DNA of 64,000 bases, taken from the NCBI GenBank assembly GCA_017410065.1, contig JAFQRL010000005.1:23536-87535 (forward strand), in the 5' to 3' direction. The position numbers and the translations under genes are program-made. Below are positions 13,020 to 55,893 of the stretch, piece after piece. This DNA is from Clostridia bacterium. Lineage in GTDB: Bacteria > Bacillota > Clostridia > Oscillospirales > CAG-272. The notes beneath the pieces are model-generated. The model did not search any database. It had not been told where the DNA came from and was given only the letters and a program-made list of their open reading frames with translations. How positions within the stretch are numbered: the stretch's first letter is position 1; each line of letters begins with the position of its first letter.

Positions 13020-13192
13020 GTGATGTTTTTGCTTACGCAAAAGTGATGTTACTCACTTCGCTCATAATGATGTTGCTCCCTGCGGTCGCAATGATGTGAT
13101 GTTTGCCCACTGTGCCGCAGGCACACATCATTGCCGTAGGCTACATCATTAGGCGAAGCCGACATCACTTGCCCGTAAGGGCAAACATCATT
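13020..13192. repeat. Linker-plus-mini-hairpin array, family B
   Basis: TGATGT at 13021, 13044, 13068, 13092, 13097; its reverse complement ACATCA at 13125, 13143, 13162, 13185; short hairpins lie between most linkers. Confidence 0.85.
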
Positions 13193-13288
13193 CGGCGCAC
13201 CTGCTTTATTGCAGGTCGCCGTAGCCATCCCTTTCACTTTTCATATACATCATAAAGCGCACGCCTCTATCTGTAAAAAACAGCAAAG

Positions 13289-13328
13289 CACGAAGAAAAC
13301 ACGAAGAAAACACGAAAGAAACACGAAA
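13289..13328 (+). repeat. Four CACGAA motifs at an exact 11-bp period
   Basis: CACGAA at 13289, 13300, 13311, 13322, just upstream of the -35 box. Confidence 0.85.
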
Positions 13329-13344
13329 TTTTCACTTAGTTCTA

Positions 13345-13373
13345 TTGATTTTTTTAAAGCCCTGTGGTATAAT
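13345..13373 (+). promoter_or_regulatory. SigmaA-type promoter of the XRE-AAA gene
   Basis: TTGATT-17 bp-TATAAT with an extended -10 TG; GAGGTG RBS follows. Confidence 0.65.
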
Positions 13374-13391
13374 AACATCGAGGTGATGATA

Positions 13392-15113
13392 ATGACACTA
13401 AAGGAATTAAGAATATCCAAGGGGCTAAGTCAAGTCGAATGTGCTGAATATCTTGGAATGTCTGTAAGAAATTATCAGAATTATGAGAGCGGCAAAAACA
13501 GCAGAGCCACCGCCAAATATAACGCGCTCTATAAAAAGCTTGAAGCATACGGCGACAACTCTTTCTCCGCCGCCACAGACCGTATCGAATACAAAACGAA
13601 TATTGTAATGGGTGATGGACTTCAGGATCTTATTTGCGGAGTTGCAAAATATCAAAAACGCGATTGCTTTGCCCTGTTACACAGATATGTTACAACTCCA
13701 ATCGATGGAAAAATCTGTACACTTTACGGTCTGCGCCGAACAGGCAAAACGACGCTCTTATTCCAAATGATCAACGAGCTCCCATTAAACAAGACGGCAT
13801 ATATTAAGATCAAAAACTCCGATAATATGTCTATGCTGACTAAAGATCTGGGTGTGTTATATGATAAAGGATGCAGATACGCGTTTATCGACGAGGTAAC
13901 ACTGATGGATGATTTTATCAACACCTCTGCACTCCTCTCGGATCTATTCGCAACTATGGGTATGAAAATCGTGGTATCAGGAACAGACTCTCTCGGTTTT
14001 GCGATGGCAAATCGCGACGAGCTCTTTGACAGAAACATTATGATACACACCTCCTTCATTTCCTTTAAGGAGTACGCGAGATTGCTCGGCATTGATTCGG
14101 TTGACAAATACATTGAGTACGGCGGTACTTTGAAGATGGAAAATATGGGCTTTGAAGATCCTGACTCCACCTTTGACGACGTGTCATTCCGTGATGATGA
14201 AAGTACGCGAAAATATATTGATTCGGCTATCAGCCGTAATATTCAGCATTCGCTGAAAAACGATAGCTTTGGTGAGTATTTTAACCAATTACGCGATCTC
14301 TACGAAAAAGGCGAGCTGACCAACGTGATCAACCGAATAGTGCAGAATATGAATCATCAGTTTCTCCTTAGGGTTGTTCGCGAGAATTTCAGGTCCTCCG
14401 ACTTCGGCTCTGCGCGAAATCTGCTCCTTCACGATCTACCCAACAAAAGAGCGCACGTTCTCTACGATGTAAACGAACAAGAGATCATTGAACGCTTAAA
14501 GGCTATTATTGATGTCAAGGAAAGAAATGAAACCGCGATAGAGGTCACGCAAGAGCATATTGATAAGATCAAAAAATACCTGTTTATGCTTGACCTTCTT
14601 GTTGATTGCACGGAGCGTTACGAAAACCGCGGTCAATCAAATTACACGCTGTTTTCACAATCGGGAATGCGCTATGCAATTGCCAAAGCACTTGTCTATT
14701 CTCTGAAGCAAGACGATTATTTTGCAACACGCCCCGAAAGCGATAAAGCATATATCATAAATAAAATACTCTATGATGTGAAGGGCAGAATGCTTGAGGA
14801 TATTGTCCTCCTTGAAACCAGCAAGGCTTGCCCACGAGATCACGAGGCCTTCAGATTCAAGTTTGAAGAAGGTGGCGAATACGATATGGTGGTGTATAAC
14901 AAGACAGATTGCAATTGCTGCGTTTACGAAATCAAGCATAGCGACAAGATCGTAGAACAGCAAACAAGATATCTGCGTGATGAAAGCAAAATCTCCATCG
15001 TTGCACATAGATTTGGAAATGTCGTAGGAAAATACGTGATCTATCGAGGCGCAACACAGGATGTCGGCGATATTCACTATGTCAATGTTGAGGAATATTT
15101 GAAAAGCTTGTAA
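13392..15113 (+). CDS. XRE-HTH + AAA ATPase + probable C-terminal PD-(D/E)XK (DUF4143-like) nuclease-fold protein
   Basis: MTLKELRISKGLSQVECAEYLG HTH; Walker A GLRRTGKT; Walker B FIDE; C-terminal EYDMVV...YEIKHS. Start moved to the RBS-supported ATG (13386 or 13392). Confidence 0.8.
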   Translation: MTLKELRISKGLSQVECAEYLGMSVRNYQNYESGKNSRATAKYNALYKKLEAYGDNSFSAATDRIEYKTNIVMGDGLQDLICGVAKYQKRDCFALLHRYVTTPIDGKICTLYGLRRTGKTTLLFQMINELPLNKTAYIKIKNSDNMSMLTKDLGVLYDKGCRYAFIDEVTLMDDFINTSALLSDLFATMGMKIVVSGTDSLGFAMANRDELFDRNIMIHTSFISFKEYARLLGIDSVDKYIEYGGTLKMENMGFEDPDSTFDDVSFRDDESTRKYIDSAISRNIQHSLKNDSFGEYFNQLRDLYEKGELTNVINRIVQNMNHQFLLRVVRENFRSSDFGSARNLLLHDLPNKRAHVLYDVNEQEIIERLKAIIDVKERNETAIEVTQEHIDKIKKYLFMLDLLVDCTERYENRGQSNYTLFSQSGMRYAIAKALVYSLKQDDYFATRPESDKAYIINKILYDVKGRMLEDIVLLETSKACPRDHEAFRFKFEEGGEYDMVVYNKTDCNCCVYEIKHSDKIVEQQTRYLRDESKISIVAHRFGNVVGKYVIYRGATQDVGDIHYVNVEEYLKSL

Positions 15114-15415
15114 TACTCCCGCCAAAACAATTCGCGAAATTTGCAAAACCTATTGTGAAAAACAATCGGGAGGTCATCAAATATGGATGAAAATATGAAA
15201 TTTTCGGATAGTTTATTTATAATGATTATAGAATATCGAAAAGGCAAAAAGCCTTTTCGCGGCTGATTTTTCAGCCGTTGCAAAAAGCAAATAACTGCTT
15301 TTTGCTTCTATATCATTGCAACAGAAATCGAAAAATTTCTTTTTGAAATTTGTTCGCAAATCTTTGATTTGCCGTCGAAATTCTAGAATTTCGACTTTCG
15401 ATTGTAGTTATAACG

Positions 15416-15453
15416 AAAAGAGACCAAGGCTCGCCGCCTTGGTCTCTTTTTTT
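15416..15453. terminator. Bidirectional intrinsic terminator
   Basis: AAAAGAGACCAAGGC...GCCTTGGTCTCTTTT between convergent genes. Confidence 0.8.
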
Positions 15454-15501
15454 GCGTGCTTTTGCGCGCTGTTTGCTAACTTAAGTTTATGTTAACGGTG
15501 A

Positions 15502-16020
15502 TTATTTGCCGTTAGAAGCTTCGATGGCAAGCTTTGTACCATACCAGATGGTCTTGCCCTTTCTTCCGAGTATGAATTCATCATCATAGGTAGCGAGAGC
15601 ATCCTCATACTCCTTAATATCATCCTCGTAATCTGCGATCTCGGAGGTGGAGAGCTCATCTCTGTACGTCTTGAGAAGGTGCTCTGTGAGCTCGATCTGA
15701 TATTCAAGGTTCTCCTTGCTCTGCTTCTTTATTATCTCCTGCTCCTCAAGCGCGATCTTCGCGGTCTTGGTATTGTCGAAAACAATTATATTGAGATACT
15801 GACCCTCGTCGGAATAAAGTCCGTCATAAGCGGTAAGCTTCTGCACAATGCCCTCGGAGAGGTAGTCTTTGTTTGTCTGAAGAATTACGGTGAAGCCTTT
15901 AGCTTCAAGATTGGACTTTGCGGTTGCAAGATCAAGCTCGGGTCTTGAGCAGGACGCGAGAGTGAAGACGCAGCCCACAAGCATTATAAAAACAAGAATG
16001 GACGATAGGATCTTTTTCAT
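15502..16020 (-). CDS. Uncharacterised lipoprotein, paralog 1
   Basis: Signal peptide with LASC lipobox; aligns by eye with the neighbouring ORF along its full length. Confidence 0.8.
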   Translation of the reverse strand: MKKILSSILVFIMLVGCVFTLASCSRPELDLATAKSNLEAKGFTVILQTNKDYLSEGIVQKLTAYDGLYSDEGQYLNIIVFDNTKTAKIALEEQEIIKKQSKENLEYQIELTEHLLKTYRDELSTSEIADYEDDIKEYEDALATYDDEFILGRKGKTIWYGTKLAIEASNGK

Positions 16021-16067
16021 CGTTTATTCTCCTTTACTTAAATTAAATTTTATTTTAGTGGGTGATA

Positions 16068-16583
16068 TCAGCCTTTGGAAGCCTCAACAGCTGCCTTTGT
16101 GCCATACCAAACGGTCTTGCCGCTTCTGCCAACGATGAAGTCTTCCTTCATAGCCTCAAGTGCTTCCTTGGCCTCCTCGATCTCCTCGTTGTAATCCTCT
16201 ATCTCGTCTGCGCTGAGCTCATCCTTATAGGTCTTTACCATATGCTCAGCCTTCTTGATCTCATATTTGATGTACTCGATCTGACGCTCCTTCGACATCT
16301 CCTGCTCCTTGATATAGAGCTTTGCTGTCTTGGTCTTATCGAATTTAGCGATAATGATCTCCTCGCCGTCGTCGTTTTCAGCCTCAAGAACCTCAACAAG
16401 TCCGAGATAGCCAAACGACTTAAGCTCTTCAGCCTTCGCGGAATACTCTACGTCGTAACCTGCCGCCTCAAGATTTGCTTTTGCCTTTTCGAAGTTAAGC
16501 TCAGGCTTTGCGCAGGACGTGAGAGTGAGAGCGCAGCCGATAAGCATAACGAGCACCAAAAGTGCGGATATGATTTTTTTCAT
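16068..16583 (-). CDS. Uncharacterised lipoprotein, paralog 2
   Basis: Signal peptide with LTSC lipobox; shares PELxxxxAKxNLEA and GRxGKTxWYGTKxAxEAS with paralog 1. Confidence 0.8.
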   Translation of the reverse strand: MKKIISALLVLVMLIGCALTLTSCAKPELNFEKAKANLEAAGYDVEYSAKAEELKSFGYLGLVEVLEAENDDGEEIIIAKFDKTKTAKLYIKEQEMSKERQIEYIKYEIKKAEHMVKTYKDELSADEIEDYNEEIEEAKEALEAMKEDFIVGRSGKTVWYGTKAAVEASKG

Positions 16584-16705
16584 TGATGATCTCCTTTAGT
16601 TTATTTTACTTACCGATCGGCACCCAGTGCCTTTCTTAAAGCTATTCTAATTATATAGCTTTAGTTCATATTTTGTCAATATATTTAAGCTATCTTTTTA
16701 ACAAT

Positions 16706-17194
16706 TTAAGAATTTTTAATTTTTCCAAGAGCCTCAATATATTCTGCCACCCTTGTTGGCAAAAGTGAGGAAAGAGCCTCTCTGTCCCCCGAAGCCATAG
16801 CCTCTCTCGCCGCCGTTGAGCTGATATTTTCAAAGCCCTCCGCGCACTTGATTAGCCTGGTTTTATATCCGCCGTGAGCCTCGTTCCATTCGGCTTGCTT
16901 CATCTCCCAGGGAAGGTCGGCATCGGTGCGATAGCCTTTCACGATAAGCTCAATACCCTTCTCCCTCATATAGTCCACCACAAGCCCCGAGGAAAAGTCC
17001 ACACTCACGCACCCCATCCCCTCCGTGGCAAGCCTCAACATATCAAGCTTCTCCTCGGGAGAAAAGGCGTATTCCTTCTCGGGATTTATAAAGGCAACGG
17101 CAAACACCTCGCCGTATTCTCTCGCCGCCCTCTTAATAATTTCTAGATGACCAAGGGTTATTGGGTCGTAGCTACCTGGCAAAATAACCTTCAT
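16706..17194 (-). CDS. coaD: Phosphopantetheine adenylyltransferase
   Basis: PGSYDPITLGHLEII, IVKGYR, ISSTAARE; lies downstream of rsmD. Confidence 0.93.
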   Translation of the reverse strand: MKVILPGSYDPITLGHLEIIKRAAREYGEVFAVAFINPEKEYAFSPEEKLDMLRLATEGMGCVSVDFSSGLVVDYMREKGIELIVKGYRTDADLPWEMKQAEWNEAHGGYKTRLIKCAEGFENISSTAAREAMASGDREALSSLLPTRVAEYIEALGKIKNS

Positions 17195-17772
17195 CTCTCC
17201 CCGTCCTCTCTGCCTCTGTAAAAGAGAATATTAACAGCCGTTTTCTTGCCGTAGCTTTGAGATTTTATCACCTCGTAGCCGCGAAGCCTATCGTCGCTTG
17301 CCTCGATCCTCTCCTCCCCCGATTCAAGCACCACGATAGCCCCTGGGATGATCACGCCGTATGCGGCAAGAGCATCCGCCATATCAACACAGCACTCCAG
17401 CGCATAAGGCGGATCTATGAAAACAAGATCGTACCTCTCTCTGCCCGAAGCCTTCCTCAAATAATTTTTCGCATCGCTCACAAGATAGTGGCACCTATCC
17501 GAAAGCTTTGTGCTTATAGCATTTTTCTTAACTATCTCCATAGCCTCGCGGGAGGAATCTATAAAGGTCGCCCTCACAGCCCCCCTGGAGAGTGCCTCAA
17601 GCCCCATCTGTCCCGAGCCCGCAAAAAGATCAAGCACCACCCTTCCCTCGCACTCAAACTGAATGGAGGAGAAGATCGCGCCCTTTATTCTCTCCGAGGT
17701 AGGGCGAGTTGCGTCGCCCTCAAGGGTCTCAAGCCTTCTGCCCTTGGCAGTGCCCGTAATTATTCGCATCAT
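17191..17772 (-). CDS. rsmD: 16S rRNA m2G966 methyltransferase RsmD
   Basis: MRIITGTAKGRRL, RPTSERIK, LDLFAGSGQMGLEALSRGA, VFIDPPY. Confidence 0.94.
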   Translation of the reverse strand: MMRIITGTAKGRRLETLEGDATRPTSERIKGAIFSSIQFECEGRVVLDLFAGSGQMGLEALSRGAVRATFIDSSREAMEIVKKNAISTKLSDRCHYLVSDAKNYLRKASGRERYDLVFIDPPYALECCVDMADALAAYGVIIPGAIVVLESGEERIEASDDRLRGYEVIKSQSYGKKTAVNILFYRGREDGER

Positions 17773-17823
17773 TATAATAATTCCTGCTTTCTGTTTTAGG
17801 TTTTTAGTGTCTATTAGACTTCT

Positions 17824-19650: not shown

Positions 19651-19692
19651 ACCTATCCCTCATCTCCTTTTGAATATTGCACCGCAATATTC

Positions 19693-19971
19693 AATCACGG
19701 CTCCGCCGTGTATATCATCAGCCCTTTGGGCTGTATATTTGCTATTCGTCGGTCGTACACGCCGAATAACGCAAGATACCGTTAAAAACGGTATGCATCA
19801 CGGCGAAAGCCTTGTATATCATCAGCTCTTTGAGCTGTATATTTGCTATTCGTCGGTCGTACACGCCGAATAACGCAAGATACCGTTAAAAACGGTATGC
19901 ATCACGGCATAGCCGTGTATATCATCAAGGCGAAAGCCTTGTATATCATCAGCCGCAGGCTGTATGGAATC
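19693..19971. repeat. Linker-plus-mini-hairpin array, family A, with two 68-bp modules
   Basis: TGTATATCATCA linkers and seven hairpins; identical 68-bp modules at 19732-19799 and 19836-19903. Confidence 0.9.
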
Positions 19972-20135
19972 CGTGCAATCCTCCGTCCTTTTCTGCTCGT
20001 GCCCGAAGGTGCTGTAACTCGGCAAATCTCCTCAATTTCCCGTAAGCATTGCCAACTTTCTCCTCAAAATATCCCTTTATCCTTTCATCAAAACTATGCA
20101 ATATATCACCTTTTGCCTCTTACTAGCCTAAAGTT

Positions 20136-26626: not shown

Positions 26627-26734
26627 ACGCCCTCCATATCCTCGCATAAAATTATCGTCTTAAAACCGTCTCTTTATATTCTACCACATATTTAAAATAA
26701 AATCAAGCCTTCTTTTTTGCGCGTCAGCGCGCGC

Positions 26735-26892
26735 GGTAGCGCAACTTTCGCTTCGCGAAAACTTCACTTGTGCAAAGCACAAACTTCACCTGCGCGTCAG
26801 CGCAACTTTTTGCTATTGCAAAAAACTTCACTGCAAAGCAACTTCACTTGTGCATAGCACAAACTTCACTTTCGCTTCGCGAAAACTTCACC
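26735..26892. repeat. Linker-plus-mini-hairpin array, family C
   Basis: ACTTCAC at 26761, 26783, 26825, 26841, 26863, 26885, separated by hairpins such as TTGTGC-AAA-GCACAA and TTTCGC-TTC-GCGAAA. Confidence 0.88.
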
Positions 26893-27045
26893 AAAAAAAG
26901 ACCCCGAAGCAAGAGAAAAAAACGCTTTTCCTTTTTCCTGCCTCAGGGTCTGTTTTCTATTCAGTTATAAATTTGGCTTTGCCAAGCGTTTAGATTTTGC
27001 TGTTCGCAAAAGCTATGAATTCGCAGAGCGAACGTTATGATATGA

Positions 27046-33891: not shown

Positions 33892-34402
33892 TCAGCGGTG
33901 CTCCCTTCTCAGAGACCATAAGCGTCATATCAAAATCCGCGAAGGTACCCATCGCCTCGTTGCCGACCTCTATCGGCATAGCATAGGTGATAACAAGATC
34001 AACGCTCTCTCTTGAAAAGGATACGGGCTCGCCGTATATCACAGCCTCGCCAAGGAGCACCTCCTTGAGGCTTCCCTCGTAGAGCACCTTGTCGTCCAGC
34101 ACGATCTTAACGTTGATAAATTCCTTAAGTCCTCCGTCTCCCTCGGGCTTTTCAACCATCCTGAGACCGACCTGATATTCTCCCTTGTCTCTGCATTTAA
34201 GCTTGAAGCTGTAATCCCTTTCGTCACCGGGCACAAGTGCTAACCCCTCGATGAAGACCGTCTCGTGGAAGCCCTCGGCGTCGAAATCAACCTCTTTATC
34301 GTCGGAGAAATTATTGACGATCATCCAAACGACAAAGCCGAGAATGATAATGAGACAAATGAAAAAGACCTTGGCAGTTAAAGTGTCGTCGCGGCGCATC
34401 AA
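33884..34402 (-). CDS. Membrane-anchored protein heading the sipW operon (weakly TasA-like)
   Basis: N-terminal TM; LVPGD motif and C-terminal GNEAMGTFADFDMTL resemble the other two subunits. Confidence 0.6.
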   Translation of the reverse strand: MMRRDDTLTAKVFFICLIIILGFVVWMIVNNFSDDKEVDFDAEGFHETVFIEGLALVPGDERDYSFKLKCRDKGEYQVGLRMVEKPEGDGGLKEFINVKIVLDDKVLYEGSLKEVLLGEAVIYGEPVSFSRESVDLVITYAMPIEVGNEAMGTFADFDMTLMVSEKGAPLNV

Positions 34403-34558: not shown

Positions 34559-34685
34559 TAATCTGCGCATAGCGCAGTATGGAATCCGTGCTCTGCACGG
34601 TATGGCATCAGCCCCTTTTTGCGAGCGAGAAGCGAGCAAAATCAAGGCGCAAGCCTTGTATATCATCAGCCGCAGGCTGCATACT
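34559..34685. repeat. Family A array variant
   Basis: Linkers GTATGGAATC, GTATGGCATCA, TGTATATCATCA with hairpins TGCGC-ATA-GCGCA, CGTGC-TCT-GCACG, AGGC-GCAA-GCCT, GCC-GCA-GGC. Confidence 0.8.
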
Positions 34686-34897
34686 TGTCATCCTGAGCCT
34701 GTCGAAGTTTTGTGAGCGAGAAGCAAGCAAAACCGAGGAGCAAAGCGACGAAGGGATCTCGCCCGTCAACCCTCTCGGGATAAAGAAAACTAACGTCAAA
34801 TCAGCTTGCCGAGCTGCATCTATCCGTCCGAGATCCGACCGCGAGCGGTCGCCCTTCGGGTTTCGGCTTCGGGCTCCGCCCTCCGCTCAAGATGACA
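34686..34897. mobile_element. MITE-like palindromic element (family E), 212 bp
   Basis: Terminal inverted repeats TGTCATCCTGAG and CTCAAGATGACA; the right part recurs at 55596-55670. Confidence 0.65.
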
Positions 34898-35224
34898 GCG
34901 GACGGTGCGTACCTTGCAGGATAAACCAAACTAACTCCAAATATGATATTTTGACAATAATTATTTACATTTTCGCTCAAATTTCACATTTTTCACCTAC
35001 ATCCCCCCTTTTATCCATCTGCCGTTTTATTCTCTGATTTTTTCGTTTTTTCCATCTTTTTTCTCTTGTTTTTCCCTCGCGAATACCCGCAAAATTTGTA
35101 AAAAAATTTGGGCAAATTCATTCAGTTTTACAATTAGTATAAATTTGCGAATAAAAATGTTCACAAATGTGATTTATAATTATTTTAGGAAAGTTTTTAA
35201 ATCTATAAAAAAGAGAGAAAAAAG

Positions 35225-38095
35225 ATGCTCGAATTAAGAAAAATTTCAAAGGATTACGTGACATCTTCGGAAACAGTCAAAGCTCTCAAGGAGGTCGATC
35301 TCACCTTCCGCGATAAGGAGTTCGTTTCTATCCTCGGTCCCTCGGGCTGCGGCAAGACGACTATGCTCAATATCGTTGGCGGTCTCGACCATTATACCTC
35401 GGGCGATCTGATCATCAACGGCAGAAGCACCCGCTCCTATAAAGACAGAGATTGGGACGTTTACAGAAACCACAGGGTGGGCTTTATCTTCCAAAGCTAC
35501 AACCTTATCCCCCACCAGACCATACTCGGCAACGTTGAGCTTGCCCTCACCATCTCGGGCATAGGAAAATCCGAGAGAGTGGCACGCGCCAAGCGCGCCC
35601 TCGACCGTGTCGGTCTTTCGGGTCAATACAACAAAAAGCCAAATCAGCTCTCGGGCGGTCAGTGCCAGAGGGTGGCTATCGCTCGCGCCCTCGTCAACGA
35701 CCCCGAGATACTTCTTGCAGACGAGCCCACGGGAGCTCTCGACACAGTTACCTCGGTGCAGATAATGGACCTTATCCGCGAGATCGCCGACGAGCGACTT
35801 GTCATAATGGTAACTCACAACCCCGAGCTTGCCGAGCAGTATTCCACAAGGATCATCCGCCTGCTTGACGGCAGAGTTGTTGAGGATTCCAACCCTGTCT
35901 CAAAAGAGGAGCTCGACGAATACACCGCTCGCCTCGAGGCTGAAAAGAGCCGCACCGTAAGCATCCGTCCTTTAAGGACGGCGCGTGGCGAGGTCTCCAC
36001 GGTTGCCGACGCAAAGCAAAAAAAGAAAAAGGATAAAAAGGCACCGAAGGGCGCGCGCCGCGAAAAGGCAAAGATGTCCTTCTTCACCGCCTTCCGTCTC
36101 TCCGCAAAGAATCTTATTTCCAAAAAGGGCAGGACCTCGATGGTCGGCTTTGCGGGCTCTATCGGCATAATCGGCATAGCAATGGTGCTTGCCTTCTCCT
36201 CGGGTATCAAGGGCTACGTTAAGTCTATGCAGGACGATATGCTCTCGGGCAACCCCATTCAGATCACCGAGACCACCTACGACCTTGAAGCCCTCACGGG
36301 TATGATGTCCACAAGCGAAAAGGTGGAGATCATCAAGGAGCCCGGCAAGGTATACATCAATTCCCTCGTTGAGTACATCGCAATGATGAGCGACCGTATG
36401 AACTCCCTCATCATCAAAAACGACATTTCGGAAAACTATATAAAATACGTCACCGAAATGCCCGAGGAATACTATTCGGCAATGCTCCTCGATTACGGCA
36501 TAGATATGTCAAACAGCATCTACACCGAGTTTGAGGCAAAGGGAGAGAAAAAGCCCCTTTCCATAAGCGCCCTCACCAATATCTATACCTCCATTCTCCA
36601 AAGCACCGAATATTCGGCGTACGCCTCCTACATCACCCAGATAGTCCCCTCCTTCAAGCAGGCACCCAATAATAAGGACTATCTCGCGGCGCAGTACGAC
36701 GTTATCGGCGAGATAGCCGACGAATACGACGAGGTTATGCTCGTCCTCGATAGAAACGAGGAGATCTCCGACCTCCTTCTTGCTCGCCTCGGCTATTATT
36801 CCGAGGAGGAATTCTTCGCAATAATCGATAAGGCTGTTGCGGGAGAGGATGCAGAGGGCGGCGAGCACTACCGCAAGTATTTCACAAACGAGGAGCTGCT
36901 CGGCAAGACCTTCACCTGGTACCCCAACGACGAGATCTTCAAGAAAAACGAGATCTCCTTCGGCGGCACCACGATGATAAATCCTCAAAACCCCTTCTCC
37001 TATGCGTATAACGCAGAGGGCACAGACCCCGCAGAGGGCGTCAATCTCAAGGTCGTCGGTATTCTATACGCCAACGAGACCACCACCTACGGCTGCCTCA
37101 CCTCGGGCATCTACTACACCGAGGCTCTCACAGAGCACGTGCTCGAAAAAAATATGAGCTCGGATATCGTTGAGTACCTTCTTCTCGATACCACCGCAAA
37201 CAACCAGATCACCTCAATGAACGTGAGCGGTATGAATATCGGTATCTATTATAACTACGACTTCACCGCCTACGGCGGCGAGACCAAGACCGCAACCGCC
37301 TTCGTTGGCTCATCCCTCGGCATAGACGATATGCTCGGCAGTATGGGTAATATGGGCGGCGGTGGCTCCTCGGGCGGCGGCTCTGGCGGAGCAGGCGGCG
37401 GTATGGGCTCGGGCGGAAGCATCGACGTTTCCCTCATCGGCTCAATGAAGACCCTCAGCGCAAGAGACGTTGGCGGAGTTGACGTTGCAAACGCCGTCTC
37501 CATATACCCCATCAGCTTTGAATCCAAGGACCTCGTTACAAACTACCTCGATAAATGGAACGGCAAGGGCGACATCACCCTCGGTAAGGGCACCCCAAGC
37601 GAGCTTGTCATCACGGCAAGCGAGCGCAGCGACGTCACCTACACCGACGCCCTGGAGCTTGTTATCAACCTTATCAACGGAATGATAGACGTAGTCTCCG
37701 CGGCTCTCATCGCCTTCACCTCTATCTCTCTTGTGGTATCCACGGTTATGATAGGAATTATAACCTACGTTTCGGTTGTTGAGAGGATCAAGGAGATCGG
37801 CGTTATCCGCTCCCTTGGCGGAAGAAAGAAGGACGTCAGCCGTCTGTTCACCGCAGAGACCTTTATCATCGGTCTGCTTTCGGGACTTATCGGCATCGGA
37901 GTCACCTTCCTTCTCTCACTCCTTGCAAGCTTTATCATCAAGTCCCTCTTCGGCATACCCAATATCGCGACCCTTGAGCCGATGCACGCAATAATCCTCG
38001 TGCTCCTCAGCATAGTTCTCACCCTATTCTCGGGAGTTATGCCCGCAAGAAGTGCCGCGAAGAAGGACCCCGTGGTAGCTCTGCGAACCGAATAG
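35225..38095 (+). CDS. ABC transporter, fused ATP-binding and FtsX/MacB-type permease
   Basis: GPSGCGKT, LSGGQCQR, LADEPTGALD, ERIKEIGVIRSLG, DPVVALRTE. Confidence 0.93.
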   Translation: MLELRKISKDYVTSSETVKALKEVDLTFRDKEFVSILGPSGCGKTTMLNIVGGLDHYTSGDLIINGRSTRSYKDRDWDVYRNHRVGFIFQSYNLIPHQTILGNVELALTISGIGKSERVARAKRALDRVGLSGQYNKKPNQLSGGQCQRVAIARALVNDPEILLADEPTGALDTVTSVQIMDLIREIADERLVIMVTHNPELAEQYSTRIIRLLDGRVVEDSNPVSKEELDEYTARLEAEKSRTVSIRPLRTARGEVSTVADAKQKKKKDKKAPKGARREKAKMSFFTAFRLSAKNLISKKGRTSMVGFAGSIGIIGIAMVLAFSSGIKGYVKSMQDDMLSGNPIQITETTYDLEALTGMMSTSEKVEIIKEPGKVYINSLVEYIAMMSDRMNSLIIKNDISENYIKYVTEMPEEYYSAMLLDYGIDMSNSIYTEFEAKGEKKPLSISALTNIYTSILQSTEYSAYASYITQIVPSFKQAPNNKDYLAAQYDVIGEIADEYDEVMLVLDRNEEISDLLLARLGYYSEEEFFAIIDKAVAGEDAEGGEHYRKYFTNEELLGKTFTWYPNDEIFKKNEISFGGTTMINPQNPFSYAYNAEGTDPAEGVNLKVVGILYANETTTYGCLTSGIYYTEALTEHVLEKNMSSDIVEYLLLDTTANNQITSMNVSGMNIGIYYNYDFTAYGGETKTATAFVGSSLGIDDMLGSMGNMGGGGSSGGGSGGAGGGMGSGGSIDVSLIGSMKTLSARDVGGVDVANAVSIYPISFESKDLVTNYLDKWNGKGDITLGKGTPSELVITASERSDVTYTDALELVINLINGMIDVVSAALIAFTSISLVVSTVMIGIITYVSVVERIKEIGVIRSLGGRKKDVSRLFTAETFIIGLLSGLIGIGVTFLLSLLASFIIKSLFGIPNIATLEPMHAIILVLLSIVLTLFSGVMPARSAAKKDPVVALRTE

Positions 38096-44572: not shown

Positions 44573-44888
44573 ATCGCGGCGCAGCCTTGCATATCACCAA
44601 CCTCGCAGAGGTTGTATATCATCAACACGCAAGTGTTGTATATCATCCGCCAACGGCGGTATATCATCAGCTCTCCGAGCTGTATATTTGCTATTCGTCG
44701 GTCGTACACGCCGAATAACGCAAGATACCGTTAAAAACGGTATGCATCAAGGCGAAAGCCTTGCATATCATCAACCTCAAAGAGGTTGTATATCACCAAC
44801 CTCGCAGAGGTTGCATATCATCAGCTCTCCGAGCTGCATATCATCACGGCACAGCCGTGTATATCACCAACCTCGCAGAGGTTGCATC
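44572..44888. repeat. Longest family A linker-plus-mini-hairpin array
   Basis: Eleven hairpins on TGYATATCAYCA linkers, plus one 68-bp module at 44681-44748. Confidence 0.92.
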
Positions 44889-44954
44889 CCCCTTCTGCGG
44901 CTTTTTTAAGAAAAGCAAAGAATTTTGAATTAATTAACACGGAGGAATATAAAA

Positions 44955-48131: not shown

Positions 48132-48138
48132 AAAGCAA

Positions 48139-48160
48139 AAGCCGCACCGCATTTGCGGCT
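48139..48160. terminator. Hairpin after carB
   Basis: AAGCCGCA...TGCGGCTT; the T tract is weak. Confidence 0.45.
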
Positions 48161-48219
48161 TGTGGAAAGGATGGGGGAAGATCACCCAAAATAAAAACTG
48201 TCGGAAAGGAAGACCCACA

Positions 48220-48951: not shown

Positions 48952-48993
48952 CTTTAAGGAAGCCTCGGCTTCTTCTGCCGTGATAAAACAAGT

Positions 48994-49905: not shown

Positions 49906-49924
49906 CTTTTTCGTGATTTTAGGC

Positions 49925-50142
49925 GAGGACACTTCGGTCGAGAACGACCTCACTTTTCGCCGAATTTACCGTCTTGCCGTATTCATATACTCCTTGCGAG
50001 CATCGCCGATACTCGGCGGCACTACGTGCATCTTCGGTGAGACCGAAGTGCTCGCGGAGCAACCTGCGTCAGCCTTGCTTGCAAGCGAGCTTGCAGACAA
50101 GTCTTGACTTGGTTATATGGCGGCGCAGTAAATTACGACGAA
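49925..50142 (-). repeat. Family D element loaded with cargo 1 (left arm of the inverted repeat)
   Basis: Reverse complement reads TCGTCGTAATTT...TATA[124 bp]TATATGAATAC...AAATTCGGCGA. Confidence 0.85.
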
Positions 50143-50334
50143 CCTCATCCAAAAATCCCTGAAAAAGAGAATTTAAAACGAAATAATTTTTCCGCGAATA
50201 AAAGAAAAATTAGAAAAGGAAAGGATTTTCCAATTATTTTCAGATGCGATTTGTTGTAATTCGAGGTGCCGCTTGTATACAACAGCATAATTAAAAACAA
50301 TAATTAAAAAAATAAAAAGCAGTATTTTTTGATG

Positions 50335-50563
50335 GATTTGGAGCGAGAATCGTCGTAATTTTGTGAGCCGACGTATAACCAAGTCAAGACTTGTCTGCAA
50401 GCTCGCTTGCAAGCAAGGCTGACGCAGGTTGCTCCGCGAGCACTTCGGTCTCACCGAAGATGCACGTAGTGCCGCCGAGTATCGGCGATGCTCGCAAGGA
50501 GTATATGAATACAGCAAGACGGGAAATTCGGCGATAGACGAAGTCGGTCTCGCCCGAAGACGC
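50335..50563 (+). repeat. Family D element loaded with cargo 1 (right arm)
   Basis: 50374-50511 is the exact reverse complement of 49980-50117. Confidence 0.9.
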
Positions 50564-50585
50564 AAAAAAGACGGAGGTAATTAAG

Positions 50586-51281
50586 ATGGGTAAGGACGTC
50601 ATCATCGCCTGCGACTTCGCAAGCGCAGAGGAAACATTCGCTTTCCTCGATAAATTTGAGGGCAAGAAGCCCTTCGTTAAGATCGGAATGGAGCTCTACT
50701 ATGCAGAGGGCCCCGAAATCGTTCGTGAGATAAAGAAAAGAGGACACAAGATCTTCCTCGACCTTAAGCTTCACGATATCCCCAACACAGTAAAAAAGGG
50801 TATGGCAGTGCTCTCTCGCCTGGACGTTGATATGACAAACCTTCACGCCTCGGGCACCAAGGCAATGATGGAGGCAGCTCTTGAGGGTCTCACAAGACCC
50901 GACGGCACACGCCCCATACTCATCGCCGTCACACAGCTCACCTCCACGAGCCAGGAGAGAATGGAGTCAGACCTTCTTATCAAAGCACCCATAGACGAGG
51001 TAGTTATGCACTACGCTTCCTGCGCAAAGGAAGCAGGGCTCGACGGCGTTGTTTGCTCTCCCCTTGAGGCAGGTAAGGTCCACGACAGATGCGGCAAGAG
51101 CTTTATAACCGTTACCCCCGGTGTAAGATTTGCAGACGGCAATAAGGGCGACCAGGTCAGAGTTATGACCCCCGAGGAGGCAAAGAAGATCGGCTCCGAC
51201 TATATCGTTGTGGGCAGACCCATCACCGCCGCGGAGGATCCTGTTGCCGCATACAACCGCTGCTGCAAGGAATTTCTGTAA
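50586..51281 (+). CDS. pyrF: Orotidine-5'-phosphate decarboxylase
   Basis: [37 protein letters not shown]. Confidence 0.96.
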
Positions 51282-51315
51282 TTTTCGGGTAGATCGCGGC
51301 TGGCGCGCACGCCGC

Positions 51316-51381
51316 CGTCTATCGCCGAATTTTCCGTCTTGCTTTATTCATATAAAGCGGCGCAGAAAATTACGACGATTC
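51316..51381 (-). repeat. Family D element, empty
   Basis: Reverse complement reads AATCGTCGTAATTTTCTGCGCCGCTTTATATGAATAAAGCAAGACGGAAAATTCGGCGATAGAC. Confidence 0.85.
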
Positions 51382-51518
51382 TACCTCGAAAATTCCTAGA
51401 AATTCAGAGTTTTAAGAGCTTTAATAAATTTGAATTTCAGCAAATCCCATCTAAAATTTATTAAAAATCGGACGGAATATCTGTAATTTTATAATTAAAT
51501 CACGAAAAGGACAAAGCT

Positions 51519-52169
51519 ATGCAATCTTATAAAAGAGAATTCATTACATTCCTTGAGAACGCGGGCGTTCTCAAGTTTGGAGACTTCACCGCAAAAAGCG
51601 GCAGAAAGATTCCCTATTTCATCAACGCAGGCGAGATCAAAACAGGCGATCAGATAGCGAAGCTCGGCGAGTTCTACGCAAAGAGCTATCTTGACAAGGT
51701 CGGCAATAAGCGTGCCGTCCTCTACGGCCCCGCATACAAGGGCATTTCCATCGCCGTTGCCACCTCCATCGGTCTCTCCAAGAGCGGACTTGACGTTCCA
51801 TTCTTCTTCAACAGAAAGGAAGCAAAGGACCACGGCGAGGGCGGCATCTTCGTTGGCTGTAAGCCAACCGAAGGCGAGGAGATCGTTATCGTTGAGGACG
51901 TTATCACCGCAGGCACCGCCATCCGCGAAAGTATGGAGATCCTCTCCTCCCTGGACGGCGCAAAGGTCATCGCAACCTTCGTTATGGTAGACAGAAAGGA
52001 AAAGGGCAAGGGCACAAAGTCCGCAATGGCAGAGGTCGGCGAGGAGTTCGGCTTCCCCGTCTATTCCGTCGTTGACGTCTACGACATCATCGAGTACCTC
52101 GAAGAAAACCCCGCCCACGCCGATGACGTCGCCCGCATCAAAAACTACCTCACCGTCTGGGGCGCCTGA
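51519..52169 (+). CDS. pyrE: Orotate phosphoribosyltransferase
   Basis: FTAKSGRKIPYF, GPAYKGI, RKEAKDHGEGG, VEDVITAGTA. Confidence 0.96.
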   Translation: MQSYKREFITFLENAGVLKFGDFTAKSGRKIPYFINAGEIKTGDQIAKLGEFYAKSYLDKVGNKRAVLYGPAYKGISIAVATSIGLSKSGLDVPFFFNRKEAKDHGEGGIFVGCKPTEGEEIVIVEDVITAGTAIRESMEILSSLDGAKVIATFVMVDRKEKGKGTKSAMAEVGEEFGFPVYSVVDVYDIIEYLEENPAHADDVARIKNYLTVWGA

Positions 52170-52202
52170 TCCAATCTGAACCAAATCCCACACCTACACA
52201 AA

Positions 52203-52390
52203 ACACAAATAATCAGCATTTTTTCAGATAATTTTGAGTTGAGAAGCCTCGCTCACCCAGCATCAACAGCTTTATAAAGCAACACAAAAAACACAAATAA
52301 GCAGCATTTTTCAGATAATTTTGAGTTGAGAAGCTTCGCCCACCCAGCATCAACAGCTTCATAAAGCAACACCAAAAACACAAATAAGCA
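52203..52390. repeat. Tandem ~87-bp duplication
   Basis: ACACAAATAA starts at 52203, 52291 and 52378; two nearly identical units. Confidence 0.88.
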
Positions 52391-52403
52391 GGTTTTTTCG
52401 ATG

Positions 52404-52504
52404 GATTTGGAGCGAGAATCGTCGTAATTTTCTGCGCCGCCGTATATGAATACGGCAAGACGGAAAATTCGGCGATAGACGAAGTCGATCTCGCCCGAAG
52501 ACGC
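52404..52504 (+). repeat. Family D element, empty
   Basis: Same core as 50335-50563 without the 124-bp cargo. Confidence 0.88.
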
Positions 52505-52523
52505 GAAAAAACAGGAGAATTTT

Positions 52524-53588
52524 ATGAGAAATTTAGTCAACATCCTCGACCTTTCCGTCGAAGAAATCGACGACCTTATCAAGACCGCCTCGGACATAAT
52601 AGACAACCCCGAGCTATACGTGAACACCTGCCGCGGCAAAATTCTCGGCACGCTCTTTTTTGAGCCGTCAACCAGAACGCGACTGAGCTTCACCTCTGCA
52701 ATGATGAGCCTTGGCGGCAACGTGCTCGGCTTCTCCCAGGCGGCAAGCTCGTCTATCTCCAAGGGCGAAACGGTGGCAGACACCATTCGTATGGTCAGCG
52801 CATACTCGGATATCATCGTTATGCGCCACCCCAAGGAGGGCGCGCCTGTTGTGGCATCGGGTGTCTCAAACGTGCCCATAATCAACGCAGGCGACGGCGG
52901 TCACTTCCACCCCACCCAGACCCTCACCGACCTGCTCACCATCAAAAAGAAAAAGGGTCGCTTCAACGACCTGACTGTTGGTATCTGCGGCGACCTTAAG
53001 TATGGGCGCACCGTCCATTCGCTTATCTCCGCCCTCTGCCGCTACGACAACGTGCGCTTTGTGCTGATCTCCCCCGAGGAGTTGAGACTTCCCGACTACG
53101 TTAAGGACGAATACCTTTTCGGCGGCGGCTGTGAGTACGTTGAAACCGACAACCTTGAACGCGCGATTCCCTCCCTCGATATCCTCTATATGACGAGAAT
53201 TCAGGCAGAACGCTTTGAATCCCGCGAGGAATATGAACGCCTTAAGGACTCCTATATCCTGAACGCGGAAAAGCTGGAGTGCGCAAAGGAGGACCTCTCA
53301 ATTCTCCATCCCCTCCCCCGTGTAAACGAGATCGACGTGGACGTGGACGACGACCCGAGAGCAGATTATTTCGACCAGGCAATGTACGGCAGATATATCC
53401 GAATGGCACTCATTCTTATGCTTCTTAAAACCAAGGGCGTTGAGGATAGCCGCTACCACGGAATAGAAAACCCTCGCCTCGTTTGCAAAAACCCCCATTG
53501 CATCTCCTCCTCCGAGCGCGGTGTCAAGCTCCTCTTTGACGAGGAGAACCGTTGCATCTTCTGCGACCAAACCGCCGAGGAAAGATAA
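52524..53588 (+). CDS. pyrB: Aspartate carbamoyltransferase catalytic chain with a fused PyrI-like Zn domain
   Basis: [30 protein letters not shown]; C-terminal CKNPHC...CIFC. Confidence 0.95.
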
Positions 53589-53746
53589 TTAGCGATTACG
53601 TCGCCCCAAAATCTCCACCCTATAGTTATGTCGCTTTTCGGGAAAAGCTCCGCAAAAGCTTTAAAAATAATTATTGGTAAAAATACCGTATCGCAAGATA
53701 TCACTTTGAAAAAGGATGTTCTGTTAGTGTGACAACTACGCGAGAG

Positions 53747-53778
53747 GTATTCTGCGGTGTCACCTCGCAAGGGGTGAC
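53747..53778. terminator. Hairpin between convergent pyrB and trpB
   Basis: GGTGTCACC-TCGCAAGG-GGTGACACC followed by TTTT. Confidence 0.7.
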
Positions 53779-53882
53779 ACCTTTTGTTTTTAAAAAACAG
53801 CAGAACTCCAAGTTTAGCAGTGAAGCTAAAGCTGAAATTCCGCTGTTTTTTACATTATTTGCAAATAGTAATTTACATTTTA

Positions 53883-55112
53883 TTAGATTTTTTCGGGAAT
53901 AGGATAATTCTCTATAACGTAATCCATATCCTTATCGCCTCTGCCCGAAAGGCAGATAAGCACGGAGCCCTTGTCCATAGTTTTTGCAAGCTTCATACCG
54001 TAAGCTACCGCGTGGGAGCTTTCGATAGCGGGGATAATGCCTTCCAATCTTGCGAGGGTATAGAAGGCGTCGATGGTCTCCTCGTCGTTGATAACGTCAT
54101 ATTTAACTCTGCCGAGATCGCGAAGGAATGCGTGCTCGGGACCCGAGGAGGGATAGTCAAGACCGCTTGCAACCGAATAAACGGGAGCGGGCTCGCCGTT
54201 TTCGTCCTTAAGCATAATGCTGTTGAAGCCGTGCATTATGCCCTCCTCACCGTAGGTAAGGCTTGCGGCGTGGTCGCCAAGCTTTGCGCCTCTGCCGAGA
54301 GGCTCAACACCGTAAATATCAACGGGGTCATTAAGGAAGCCCGAGAACATACCCATCGCATTTGAGCCGCCGCCAACGCAAGCAACCACCGCGTCGGGAA
54401 GCTCGCCTGTCATAGAAACGAACTGCTCTCTTGCCTCAATACCGACAACGCTCTGGAAGTCTCTCACCATCATCGGGAAGGGGTGAGGGCCGAGAACCGA
54501 GCCGATGCAATAGATGGCATCCTTGTACTCTCTTGCATAAGCCGCAAACGCCGCGTCTACCGCCTCCTTAAGAGTAGCAAGACCGTGTGTCACCTCAACC
54601 ACGTTCGCGCCGAGGATCTTCATTCTCTCTACGTTGGGAGCCTGCTTTTTAATATCAACAGAGCCCATATAAATATCACATTCAAGACCGAAATAAGCCG
54701 CCGCAGTTGCAAGAGCAACACCGTGCTGACCCGCACCTGTTTCGGCAATGACCTTCTTCTTGCCCATATACTTCGCAAGAAGTGCCTCGCCCATACAGTG
54801 ATTAAGCTTGTGCGCGCCCGTGTGGTTCAGGTCCTCGCGCTTAACGTAAAGCTGAACGCCTGTGCCGATCTTATTGGAGAGCCTTTCAAGATGGGATATG
54901 GGAGTGGGTCTGCCCTGGAACTCCCTTCTGATCTTGCGAAGATCAGCAATAAATTTAGACGACTTGCAGATCGTCTGATAAGCGTCGGAGATCTCCTTCA
55001 TAGCCACCTGAAGCTCGGGAGAAATATATGCTCCGCCGTACTTGCCGAAGAAGCCCTCCTTTGAGGGATACTTCTTGAAATAAGTGTCAAAATTGATGCC
55101 GTTAAATTCCAT
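53883..55112 (-). CDS. trpB: Tryptophan synthase beta chain, stand-alone
   Basis: [55 protein letters not shown]. Confidence 0.93.
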
Positions 55113-55204
55113 TTTTCTTTCCTCTTTTCTTTTTTTCTTGCGTGTTATGCACGCGTCCTTTGCGTACTTCCCTGCGTTTTACGCATTTTTTCCGCCCGAG
55201 GAAT

Positions 55205-55465
55205 ATAAAAAGCCCCGAGCAATAATAGCTCGGGGCGAATAAATCCGCGGTGCCACCCGATTCGGGACAACGTCCCCTCATGTACTAAAGGGCAACGCCC
55301 CAACCATACATTGTGCAGATAACGGCTGCCTGCCGTCGAAGCCTACTCGCAAAGCTTTCGGTTCGCCCTCGAAAGTCCATTCACCAAAGCGCACTATACC
55401 GCAATCCCACCGCCTGCGGCTCTCTGTGTTAATAACACTATGGCTACTACTCTTTCTCATCGGTT
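55205..55465 (-). ncRNA. Trp-specific T-box riboswitch
   Basis: T-box GGGTGGCACCGCG (reverse complement of 55246-55258); terminator GCCCCGAGC...GCTCGGGGC-TTTTT; Stem I AGAGA and GGTGGGA elements; specifier GAA-TGG (TGG at 55377-55379). Confidence 0.92.
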
Positions 55466-55473
55466 ATGTGATG

Positions 55474-55502
55474 ATTTTACCACACCGCCGCGGCTTTGTC
55501 AA
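55474..55502 (-). promoter_or_regulatory. SigmaA promoter of the T-box/trpB leader
   Basis: Minus strand TTGACA-17 bp-TAAAAT with TG. Confidence 0.8.
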
Positions 55503-55595
55503 TACCTTTTTGAAAAATTTCCCGAAATCCCCCGAAAATTATTTTGGAAAATTCCCCGAATTTTCCTCTTGAAATATCCTCCAAAGCTTCGCTCT

Positions 55596-55670
55596 CCGTC
55601 CGAGATCCGACCGCCGGCGGTCGCCCTTCGGGTTTCGGCTTCGGGCTCCCGCCCTCCGCTCAAAATGACA
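55596..55670. repeat. Partial family E element (right end)
   Basis: Nearly identical to 34824-34897; ends GCTCAAAATGACA. Confidence 0.85.
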
Positions 55671-55697
55671 ACAGACGGAACGTGCCTCGTTTCTCAT

Positions 55698-55893
55698 AAT
55701 CAAGGCGCAAGCCTTGTATATCATCAGCTCTTTGAGCTGTATATCATCAAGGCGTAAGCCTTGTATATCATCAGCTCTTTGAGCTGTATATTTGCTATTC
55801 GTCGGTCGTACACGCCGAATAACGCAAGATACCGTTAAAAACGGTATGCATCGCGGCACAGCCGTGTATATCATCAGCCATTTGGGCTGCATC
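55698..55893. repeat. Family A array with one 68-bp module
   Basis: Six hairpins on TGTATATCATCA linkers; module at 55785-55852. Confidence 0.9.

Follow-up and report, generated by a model that had tools for sequence, protein, structure and literature searches.

Tandem hairpin arrays of a Clostridia genome resemble the Gut-1 motif and arrays found upstream of IVP four-helix-bundle genes

A stretch of 64,000 nt from a Clostridia bacterium (GCA_017410065.1, contig JAFQRL010000005.1, positions 23,536 to 87,535; hereafter the window, C1:23536-87535 of our genome G000) contains six arrays in which perfect hairpins of 5-7 bp with loops of 3-4 nt alternate in tandem with a constant linker of 7-8 nt. 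What are these arrays, how did they come to lie where they do, and does a protein belong to them? An earlier note on this DNA had sorted the arrays into families A, B and C, had seen a common WTCAY core in their linkers and had suggested one superfamily recognised by related proteins, possibly HUH nucleases. In this study, the genome (2.37 Mb in 47 contigs, 48% G+C, 96% complete) was analyzed together with 40 relatives, giving a comparison panel of 41 genomes. With a confidence a little above even, we read the window arrays as orphan copies of a Gut-1-type repeat superfamily that has its home form beside genes for IVP four-helix-bundle proteins, and that disperses without the gene and grows by slippage.

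The arrays lie where the earlier note had placed them, all between long open reading frames (ORFs), one of them being overlapped by a 152-aa ORF (34579-35037). Within the window, units of a linker plus a perfect hairpin numbered 21 for family A and 5 for family C, compared to 0.67 and 0.5, respectively, in 30 dinucleotide-type shuffles. Tandem Repeats Finder returned array periods of 22-25 nt together with block duplications of 47 and 104 nt. Across the whole genome, we counted 97 arrays of at least three closely spaced hairpins (10 in the shuffled genome) and about 200 units, which are enriched outside long ORFs and occur in arrays and in composites. The words most enriched beside hairpins in an unbiased scan were the linkers themselves (ACTTCAC, ATATCAT, ATTCCAT, GTTATGA and ATTTCAC), and units adjoining a perfect hairpin outnumbered reversed-pattern controls for A (83/6), A' (52/22), C (60/2), D (22/4) and B (12/2).

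The pattern of family A, defined as two linkers 13-16 nt apart, was present in 14/41 genomes (reversed control: zero matches) and also in many metagenome-assembled genomes (MAGs) of Acutalibacteraceae, Oscillospiraceae and Clostridia from animal guts. A perfect stem of at least 5 bp is enclosed by 132 of the 188 MAG matches; the rest are mostly one conserved Collinsella sequence plus scattered chance matches. C arrays were found in 14/41 genomes as well (70 matches in G000), B arrays in at least eight. Between species, linkers stay constant and stems differ. The string A(C/T)(A/T)TCA(C/T) is literally contained in the A, B and C linkers, as had been pointed out, and a word of 4-5 nt common to three linkers of 7-8 nt would be weak evidence of kinship if taken alone. 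Nevertheless, the probability that this likeness reflects chance or low complexity, with the arrays being unrelated local tandem repeats, is practically negligible: this explanation is refuted by the shuffle and reversed-pattern controls, and against it stand also the identical linkers with other stems in dozens of other genomes, the head, centre and tail sequences common to the families, and the sub-threshold Gut-1 matches of B and C.

These matches come from a permissive Rfam scan of 15 array loci, in which Gut-1 (RF01706; gathering threshold 50 bits) was the single meaningful family; nothing credible was obtained for the arrays from other Rfam families. The GTGAAAT/ATTTCAC family elsewhere in the genome scored 65-69 bits and C-type composites 48-53 bits (one of them 53). 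The C array of the window (locus L135; 30.0 bits, E 0.0085) and its B element (locus L133; 29.1 bits, E 0.014) stayed below threshold, and an A array was not detectably matched (22.3 bits, E 0.78); a gathering-mode scan of the window gave no Gut-1 match. Gut-1 was described from human-gut metagenomes without function, context or protein partner (Weinberg et al. 2010, PMC2864571). In the literature, we found no later paper studying it, and none linking Gut-1 or IVP proteins to such arrays. Like the window arrays, it consists of at least three small hairpins joined by a constant heptamer (GUGAAAU), with the same hairpin size, loop types and gut Clostridia hosts. It differs in that the 77-nt Rfam model spans just one arm of a two-armed element, and in that the window linkers are ACATCAY/GTGATGT, ACTTCAC and TATATCAT rather than GUGAAAU, those of B and C being one base off the Gut-1 linker.

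The kinship becomes apparent from the build of whole elements. B, C, D and Gut-1-type copies are composites of 200-360 nt on one plan, starting with a head (ACCTTGC..GCAAGGT, then GTGTGTTATAC..CGGGYGGTAA), which is followed by about four reverse-linker and hairpin units, a centre (..TTTGCCCAC) and about four hairpin and linker units, and ending with TTGCCC-loop-GGGCAA, a linker variant that ends in GTT, and, as the tail, a terminator-like hairpin. Between families (GTGAAAT, GTGAAGT, GTGATGT, GTTATGA), the 8-10 linkers of an element all change jointly. Because the linkers switch together while head, centre and tail stay recognisable, we regard B, C, D and Gut-1 as homologous elements. A more general grammar is common to all families, namely a terminal hairpin, an arm of linkers and hairpins, a centre repeating part of the terminal hairpin, and a reverse-complement arm. 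Within a larger superfamily of non-coding DNA repeats in gut Oscillospirales, Gut-1 thus represents a single linker variant.

The candidate protein partner is IVP (PF05635, 23S_rRNA_IVP; the "four helix bundle protein" of NCBIfam TIGR02436), whose only relative in the PDB is the uncharacterised 2RLD. The associated gene encodes a four-helix bundle of 115 aa with no known catalytic motif, and the defence-system libraries of PADLOC gave no match to it. Four of the six IVP genes in G000 have a two-armed hairpin array directly upstream (linkers ATTTCAC, ACTTCAC, ATTTCAT and GATTTCAT). The remaining two (C33:931-1239, C37:5559-5846) lie between hairpin-less complementary heptamer rows (TTGAAAR.../...YTTTCAA; CACTYTT.../...AGTGAAW) with repeated tRNA-like fragments at the flanks, an arrangement reminiscent of the stem in an intervening sequence of 23S rRNA. 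In the panel, 76 IVP matches were distributed over 27/41 genomes. Among 61 IVP genes that had been identified purely by protein search and had sufficient sequence on their 5' side, 36 have an inverted heptamer array within 340 nt upstream, compared to 14/1757 control genes (0.8%), and several more arrays escape this rigid definition. Starting from the DNA, an IVP gene stood about 60-130 nt from the array at 9/125 loci (six from the panel, the rest from other MAGs), nearly all of these loci having been retrieved by the A pattern alone.

Linkers beside IVP genes cover all families of the window and the genome (TATATCAT, TATGGAAT, TATGTAAT, ACATCAT, ACTTCAC, TCATAAC and ATTTCAC), and about a dozen further ones were seen there (e.g., ATATCGC, ATATCAC, CAATTCAT, GCTTCAT and ATTATTCAT); relatives hold cognate IVP genes for A, A', B, C, D and F linkers. 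Since 27/60 IVP genes are preceded, at a distance of about 280-350 nt, by a tRNA gene in the same orientation, the home form would comprise a tRNA gene, a terminator, a two-armed array, often a promoter, and the IVP gene. The PF05635 search of G000 placed no IVP gene in the window, and its six arrays are therefore considered gene-less copies. In the genome as a whole, a cognate IVP gene exists for C (contig C24) and F (contig C28); none is assembled for A, A', B or D.

Three further observations concern IVP loci. The same conserved small ORF comes after IVP genes with different linkers (type B in G021, locus L181; type F in G000, C15:29157 region), and the loci C24, L185, L206 and L220 have a common downstream motif (..CATTTTACAGCTGTTTAGTATAACATATCGAAAGGAG). 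On contig C24, two near-identical C arrays of the gene-linked type (34144-34351 and 35222-35412) lie 1.08 kb apart, with an IVP gene seen after the second only.

The linkers follow the protein lineage. On a maximum-likelihood tree of the 76 IVP proteins, 26 changes of linker label were required, compared to 53.5 after shuffling, and 0/200 shuffles were as low; A, ATATCGC, F, CAATTCAT, ATTATTCAT, TATGTAAT and D each form one group. The deepest split (100/100 support) separates clade I, holding A-type (TATNNNAT), A' and A'' linkers plus a lineage with mixed TATGNNAT linkers, from clade II, holding F (the Gut-1 type), C, B, D and all others. In modules of clade II, it is the gene-proximal arm that bears the WTCAY-type word and GNA loops on the sense strand of the gene; in those of clade I, which are mirrored, it is the far arm. 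The same split agrees with two stem vocabularies and with this mirrored layout. Because each IVP lineage has its own linker word, the linker appears to be the family signature and the likeliest site of protein contact.

An iteron-like operator would also account for part of this picture. Here, the two-armed array would be bound as double-stranded DNA at the IVP promoter by IVP or another factor, and orphan arrays would act as decoys or as regulators of neighbouring genes. At several gene-linked copies, the array does reach or overlap the -35 box of a good promoter; the arrays are laid out with two-fold symmetry and contain a constant word 6-10 times, and protein lineage is tracked by linker type. 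However, a period of 22-25 bp per unit does not correspond to an integral number of helical turns, hairpins and a one-strand bias of c-GNA-g loops have no obvious role in duplex DNA, and many arrays have no gene start nearby. Avd-like four-helix bundles, moreover, are known as partners of RNA and reverse transcriptases and not as sequence-specific duplex binders. We therefore consider an operator unlikely.

A more far-reaching reading, possible to our mind while well short of even, is that IVP proteins are sequence-specific readers of the 7-8 nt word between hairpins in single-stranded nucleic acid, that more than 15 such natural specificities have co-diversified with their arrays, and that IVP plus array would be a so far unrecognised selfish or regulatory module of tRNA and rRNA operons, seeding gene-less arrays that grow and shrink with replication direction.

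How much of the common linker core remains? With the GNA-loop strand as reference, WTCAY occurs in the consensus linker of 21/44 gene-linked arrays and TCAY in 25/44; WTCAY is missing from the A sister types (TATGNNAT) and from ATATCGC of another clade. The core is a real tendency, mainly of clade II, and it is frequent without being universal. As A sits in the other deep clade and is mirrored, its likeness to B and C (ATATCAT vs ACATCAT) may be convergence. The proposed superfamily with related proteins accordingly fits in outline, with its common grammar, its grading into Gut-1 and its IVP lineages per linker; a HUH partner is not supported, and A belongs to a different deep clade from B and C.

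The preference for loops of the GNA/GNRA type, also suggested earlier, was confirmed. On the linker strand, GNA/GNNA loops compared to TNC/TNNC loops by 25/5 in A and 30/1 in C, and in gene-linked arrays, GNA-type against TNC-type loops stood at 32/7 on one strand and 3/33 on the other. A C-G pair closes 196/233 (84%) of the GNA/GNNA loops; DNA mini-hairpins of this c-GNA-g kind, d(GCGAAGC) being the type, are exceptionally stable. Stems are 98.2% Watson-Crick (891/907 pairs), and the G-T pairs among the exceptions number 11 on the IVP sense strand and 2 on the other. The supposition that the stem sequence is free to vary has to be given up in view of the C-G closure, fixed starts (CA...TG in A stems, T...A in B and C stems) and a small vocabulary that is reused within each genome, with cagctc, caaggc, cacggc, caacctc, caacac, cagcc and ccgcc in A and ttgccc, ttgtgc, ttttgc and tttcgc in B, C and D.

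Between orthologous modules, whose IVP proteins are 83-94% identical, linkers are constant and hairpins at corresponding positions wholly different. Loop and right arm of the first hairpin always recur, inverted, in the array centre, which covaries with that hairpin across orthologues, as exemplified by ccaagccGCAggcttgg with ..TGCGGCTTG.. and ccattgcGAAAgcaatgg with ..TTTCGCAATG.., or by ttgccc/gggcaa with GGGCAAATTTC compared to tcgcc/ggcga with GGCGAATTT. When orthologous modules were inspected by eye, no compensation of deviant linkers at mirrored positions of the two arms was seen, so that pairing between the arms lacks covariation support, though predicted folds use it.

The mobility of the arrays is best seen in the spacer between a pyrC-like gene and carB. 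In more than 20 congeneric species, this spacer measures just 20-50 nt, and only in G000 does it hold an A array of 330 nt, which is a recent, species-specific insertion. It looks like a grown single arm plus centre, because its end (CATCCCCCTTCTGCGGCTT) resembles the centre of gene-linked A arrays. Block duplications inside arrays fit slippage or unequal exchange between linkers. Logan contigs break inside arrays and offered only hints of unit gain or loss between strains.

The earlier note had advised checking strand bias relative to replication and transcription. We used the GC skew over 20 kb on each side of an array, with the replication direction read from skew alone. All one-directional A/A' arrays (20/20 on 10 contigs; skew 0.04-0.11 in 19 of them) carry the TATATCAT/GNA strand on the C-rich strand, and the one-directional C arrays, including that of the window, do so with their ACTTCAC strand (3/3), corresponding to a two-sided p of about 0.002 with contigs as independent units. 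GC skew correlated with gene-strand bias (r = 0.50), as expected if the G-rich strand is leading. Since the GNA strand of these one-directional arrays is on the C-rich strand, the strand forming the stable hairpins would be the nascent lagging strand. Relative to flanking genes, orphan arrays had no preferred direction, 3 being sense and 4 antisense and the others lying between genes that diverge or converge. Two-armed composites had no strand bias (C tail motif 6 vs 10), as expected of near-symmetric elements. In regions of other genomes where skew exceeds 0.04 in magnitude, 2/2 arrays of at least two units and two single units on contig C93 of G003 agreed, as did 1/1 on C15 of G020.

A strand bias of this kind is also what REP/BIME-like elements might display (repetitive extragenic palindromes and bacterial interspersed mosaic elements), if they were moved by a HUH transposase of the Y1 class (RAYT or IS200/IS605-type) that recognises the hairpin and, on single-stranded DNA, cuts within the linker. 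The arrays fit this picture in being short intergenic palindromes flanked by a conserved word and in their patchy distribution between species, and TCAY-like words recall the cleavage sites of IS608. We nevertheless hold it to be very unlikely. The Y1_Tnp domain (PF01797) had 0 matches in the 96%-complete genome, whereas control genomes were matched (Rep, relaxases and Y2 were not searched). The co-occurrence with HUH nucleases that had been anticipated was not borne out among the 41 genomes, in which Y1_Tnp occurred in 7/14 genomes with A arrays and 9/27 without; it is absent from the three array-richest genomes (G000, G003 and G020). A GTAG/CGTC tag was not found, and the stable-hairpin strand is the nascent lagging, C-rich one. 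IS608-type HUH elements prefer the lagging-strand template, i.e. the opposite.

In our favoured reading, a unit of a short hairpin, usually with a c-GNA-g tip, and a 7-8 nt linker would have its home in a two-armed array directly 5' of an IVP gene, often right after a tRNA gene and terminator. Gene-less copies would spread into intergenic spacers, as seen for pyrC-carB, and one arm would then grow through replication slippage between the repeated linkers, a step suggested by the strand bias and by the general behaviour of hairpin-forming repeats. Growth would be favoured when the c-GNA-g hairpin strand is the nascent lagging strand, which would explain why every long one-directional array has that strand on the C-rich strand. 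CTG repeats in E. coli behave comparably; Kang et al. (1995) reportedly found expansion rather than deletion when the hairpin-prone strand was the nascent lagging one. We regard the window copies as recently inserted and expanded. A dedicated function is most likely lacking, although neighbouring transcripts do receive stable hairpins from them.

Alternatively, the arrays could be genes for structured noncoding RNAs, i.e. multi-hairpin RNAs whose single-stranded linkers bind or titrate a protein, perhaps IVP, or serve as processing sites, and the window copies would then be functional. Rfam files Gut-1 as a small RNA (PMC2864571). The stems are preserved despite wholesale sequence change, the composite copies have a promoter-like head, predicted folds join the two arms as a branched rod, and the surplus of G-T pairs on the IVP sense strand is in line with an RNA. 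Metatranscriptome contigs do hold a Gut-1-type array; however, depth profiles over this locus were alike in RNA and DNA runs. Orphan arrays lie either way round relative to neighbouring genes and one way relative to replication. Moreover, the arms are true reverse complements, so that the two halves of a single transcript would differ, one having GNA loops and the other UNC loops; the stems are unusually perfect for an RNA family, and the pyrC-carB copy is a species-specific insertion. Taken together, we rate an RNA gene as rather unlikely.

Several points weigh against the reading that we favour. Adjacency and co-inheritance of array and IVP gene could be explained by plain linkage, which predicts them too, so that specific recognition of the linker by IVP is an inference. 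The genome has about 110 A/A' units and no assembled clade I IVP gene, and home-type A arrays on C47 (after tRNAs) and C15 as well as an array of the ATTATTCAT type (E3) on C11 are without an IVP gene. At C46:69560-69775, the contig stops within a two-armed A array of the home type, located after a tRNA gene and its terminator, and a clade I IVP gene may lie in the assembly gap beyond; an 871-nt contig of a source-like run is about 82% identical to a clade I IVP gene region and is not assignable to this organism. An IVP gene with C linkers occurs in just 3 of the 14 genomes with C arrays. Either arrays persist without the gene, or this short gene, with repeats and tRNA at its flanks, is often lost from MAGs. 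The strand bias comes from 10 contigs of one draft genome, few one-directional arrays of other genomes lie in regions of clear skew (most A arrays there are two-armed), and an array on C16 of G014 disagrees with the strand rule (0/1). For dispersal, neither a consistent target-site duplication nor an empty-site junction rule was seen, and the B element yielded no clean comparison with an empty site, as its downstream gene differs in all relatives. The G-T pairs, finally, would also fit an RNA role of the gene-linked copies.

The arrays of the window and their parts are listed in Table 1. Compared to the earlier description, this adds A' linkers (TATGGAAT/TATGGCAT) mixed into A arrays, the two-armed build of B, a remnant of D type (GTTATGA) and the small reused stem vocabulary. 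The genome carries three further copies of the B element.

Table 1. Hairpin-linker arrays of the window and their component parts (positions within the window).
Feature	Positions	Strand	Description
Family B composite element	12963-13232	.	Two-armed; repeat part 13020-13192; GTGATGT then ACATCAY
B element, head	12963-13019		Promoter-like TTGC...TATACT; common to C- and Gut-1-type copies elsewhere
B element, first arm	13020-13096		Four GTGATGT/TGATGT linkers with hairpins
B element, centre	13097-13113		TGATGTTTGCCCAC
B element, second arm	13114-13192		Four ACATCAY linkers with hairpins
B element, tail hairpin	13193-13232		CGGCGCACCTGC..GCAGGTCGCCG; same as 12859-12898
Family A array	19694-19962	+	Linker (T/C)ATATCAT; about 8 hairpin units; 104-nt tandem period
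Inserts of ~58 nt in this array	about 19739-19796 and 19843-19900		Two copies
Family C array	26719-26892	+	One-directional; six ACTTCAC linkers
Degenerate D-type remnant	26960-27040	.	GTTATAA, GTTTAGA and GCTATGA linkers with hairpins; adjoins C array
Short mixed A'/A array	34563-34679	+	Linkers TATGGAAT, TATGGCAT, TATATCAT
Family A array, pyrC-carB spacer	44573-44903	+	11 units (44573-44884); one ~58-nt insert (about 44688-44745)
End of pyrC-carB array	44885-44903		CATCCCCCTTCTGCGGCTT; resembles centre of gene-linked A arrays
Family A array	55699-55889	+	5-6 units; one ~58-nt insert (about 55794-55851); 47-nt tandem period

Some of these arrays come with additional sequences. A conserved insert of about 58 nt (TTGCTATTCGTCGGTCGTACACGCCGAATAACGCAAGATACCGTTAAAAACGGTATGC) lies inside most A arrays of G000, often terminating them, and does not occur in A arrays that are gene-linked in relatives. 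Beside two A arrays (34700-34900 and 55560-55680), there is a repeated GC-rich stretch of about 90 nt (..CCGTCCGAGATCCGACCGC.AGCGGTCGCCCTTCGGGTTTCGGCTTCGGGCTCC..CGCTCAAGATGACAGCGGACGG); the region 34680-35230 gave neither an Rfam match at E up to 1 nor a long inverted repeat. The B element is flanked by a 40-nt direct repeat (12859-12898 and 13193-13232) of a terminator-like hairpin, CGGCGCACCTGCTTTATTGCAGGTCGCCGTAGCCATCCC, which may represent either a long duplication of the target or the tail of another element that is truncated.

Other repeats in the window are of different kinds. Positions 15189-15395 hold two copies of a three-hairpin repeat of about 75 nt (agaaatCGAAAAatttct .. atttgTTCGcaaat .. 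gtcgaaattCTAGaatttcgac), with at least 10 copies on other contigs (C7, C18, C20, C22, C28 and C42); as a constant short linker is lacking, this appears to be a repeat family apart from the linker arrays. At 13285-13327, AAAACACGAAG is repeated 3.9 times just 5' of the promoter and start (13394) of a gene with an XRE-type helix-turn-helix, and at 52196-52399, an 87-nt tandem repeat (2.3 copies, 92% alike) is unrelated to the hairpin arrays. The sole Rfam match of the window at gathering score is a T-box leader (RF00230, 105 bits) at 55228-55469 (-), upstream of the gene at 53883-55112.

If the connection with IVP is correct, it would provide a function for the orphan Gut-1 and for the widespread IVP family, including the proteins of 23S rRNA intervening sequences and, as a relative, Avd of diversity-generating retroelements. 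Gut-1 has been in Rfam since 2010 with a one-line description, and PF05635/TIGR02436 is without a known function despite a solved structure; the two orphans would become a testable pair. The arrays also offer a natural system for hairpin-driven repeat instability in bacterial chromosomes. From a practical point of view, short-read assemblies of gut Clostridia are interrupted at such arrays, which can also be mistaken for CRISPR arrays or for predicted structured RNAs.

The IVP-linked hairpin-array module corresponds to no published family, and the window arrays are new linker variants of the known and unexplained Gut-1 kind. Miniature inverted-repeat transposable elements have terminal inverted repeats and a target-site duplication; the composites have a defined head and tail and at least 16 copies, with no consistent duplication seen apart from the 40-nt repeat that flanks the B element of the window. 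CRISPR arrays are set apart by repeat architecture alone, as they have a constant repeat of 24-48 nt and unique non-palindromic spacers, whereas the constant part here is 8 nt and the variable part a palindrome from a small reused set. Type III toxin-antitoxin systems (ToxIN) likewise combine short repeats, a terminator or promoter and a small protein gene, the repeat being specific to the protein; however, ToxI consists of identical direct repeats of 34-36 nt and ToxN is an endoribonuclease of another fold, and no toxicity or cleavage is known for IVP. With CTG/CAG repeats in E. coli, the arrays have in common that the strand of the stabler hairpin matters relative to the fork; those are simple triplets on plasmids, whereas these are natural arrays for which the mechanism is deduced from the strand bias of 23/23 one-directional arrays.

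The closest parallels are mobile palindromes and rRNA insertions. REP/BIME elements (REPINs) with their RAYT in Enterobacteria and Pseudomonas are also high-copy intergenic palindromes with a conserved flanking word and composite mosaics, in which non-autonomous copies far exceed the single associated gene and the distribution across species is patchy. In contrast to REP, it is the linker that is constant in our arrays and the stems that vary; TATATCAT, ACTTCAC and ACATCAY serve as flanking words, with no GTAG/CGTC, and the gene codes for a four-helix bundle of 115 aa instead of a Y1 HUH protein, of which none was matched in G000. The intervening sequences of 23S rRNA with an IVP/S23p ORF (Leptospira; Coxiella, PMC4990558) employ the same PF05635 family, with the ORF in or beside complementary arms in a stable-RNA operon. 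Compared to these, the modules described here follow tRNA genes, usually have both arms upstream of the ORF, are interleaved with hairpins, and are accompanied by gene-less copies scattered over the genome.

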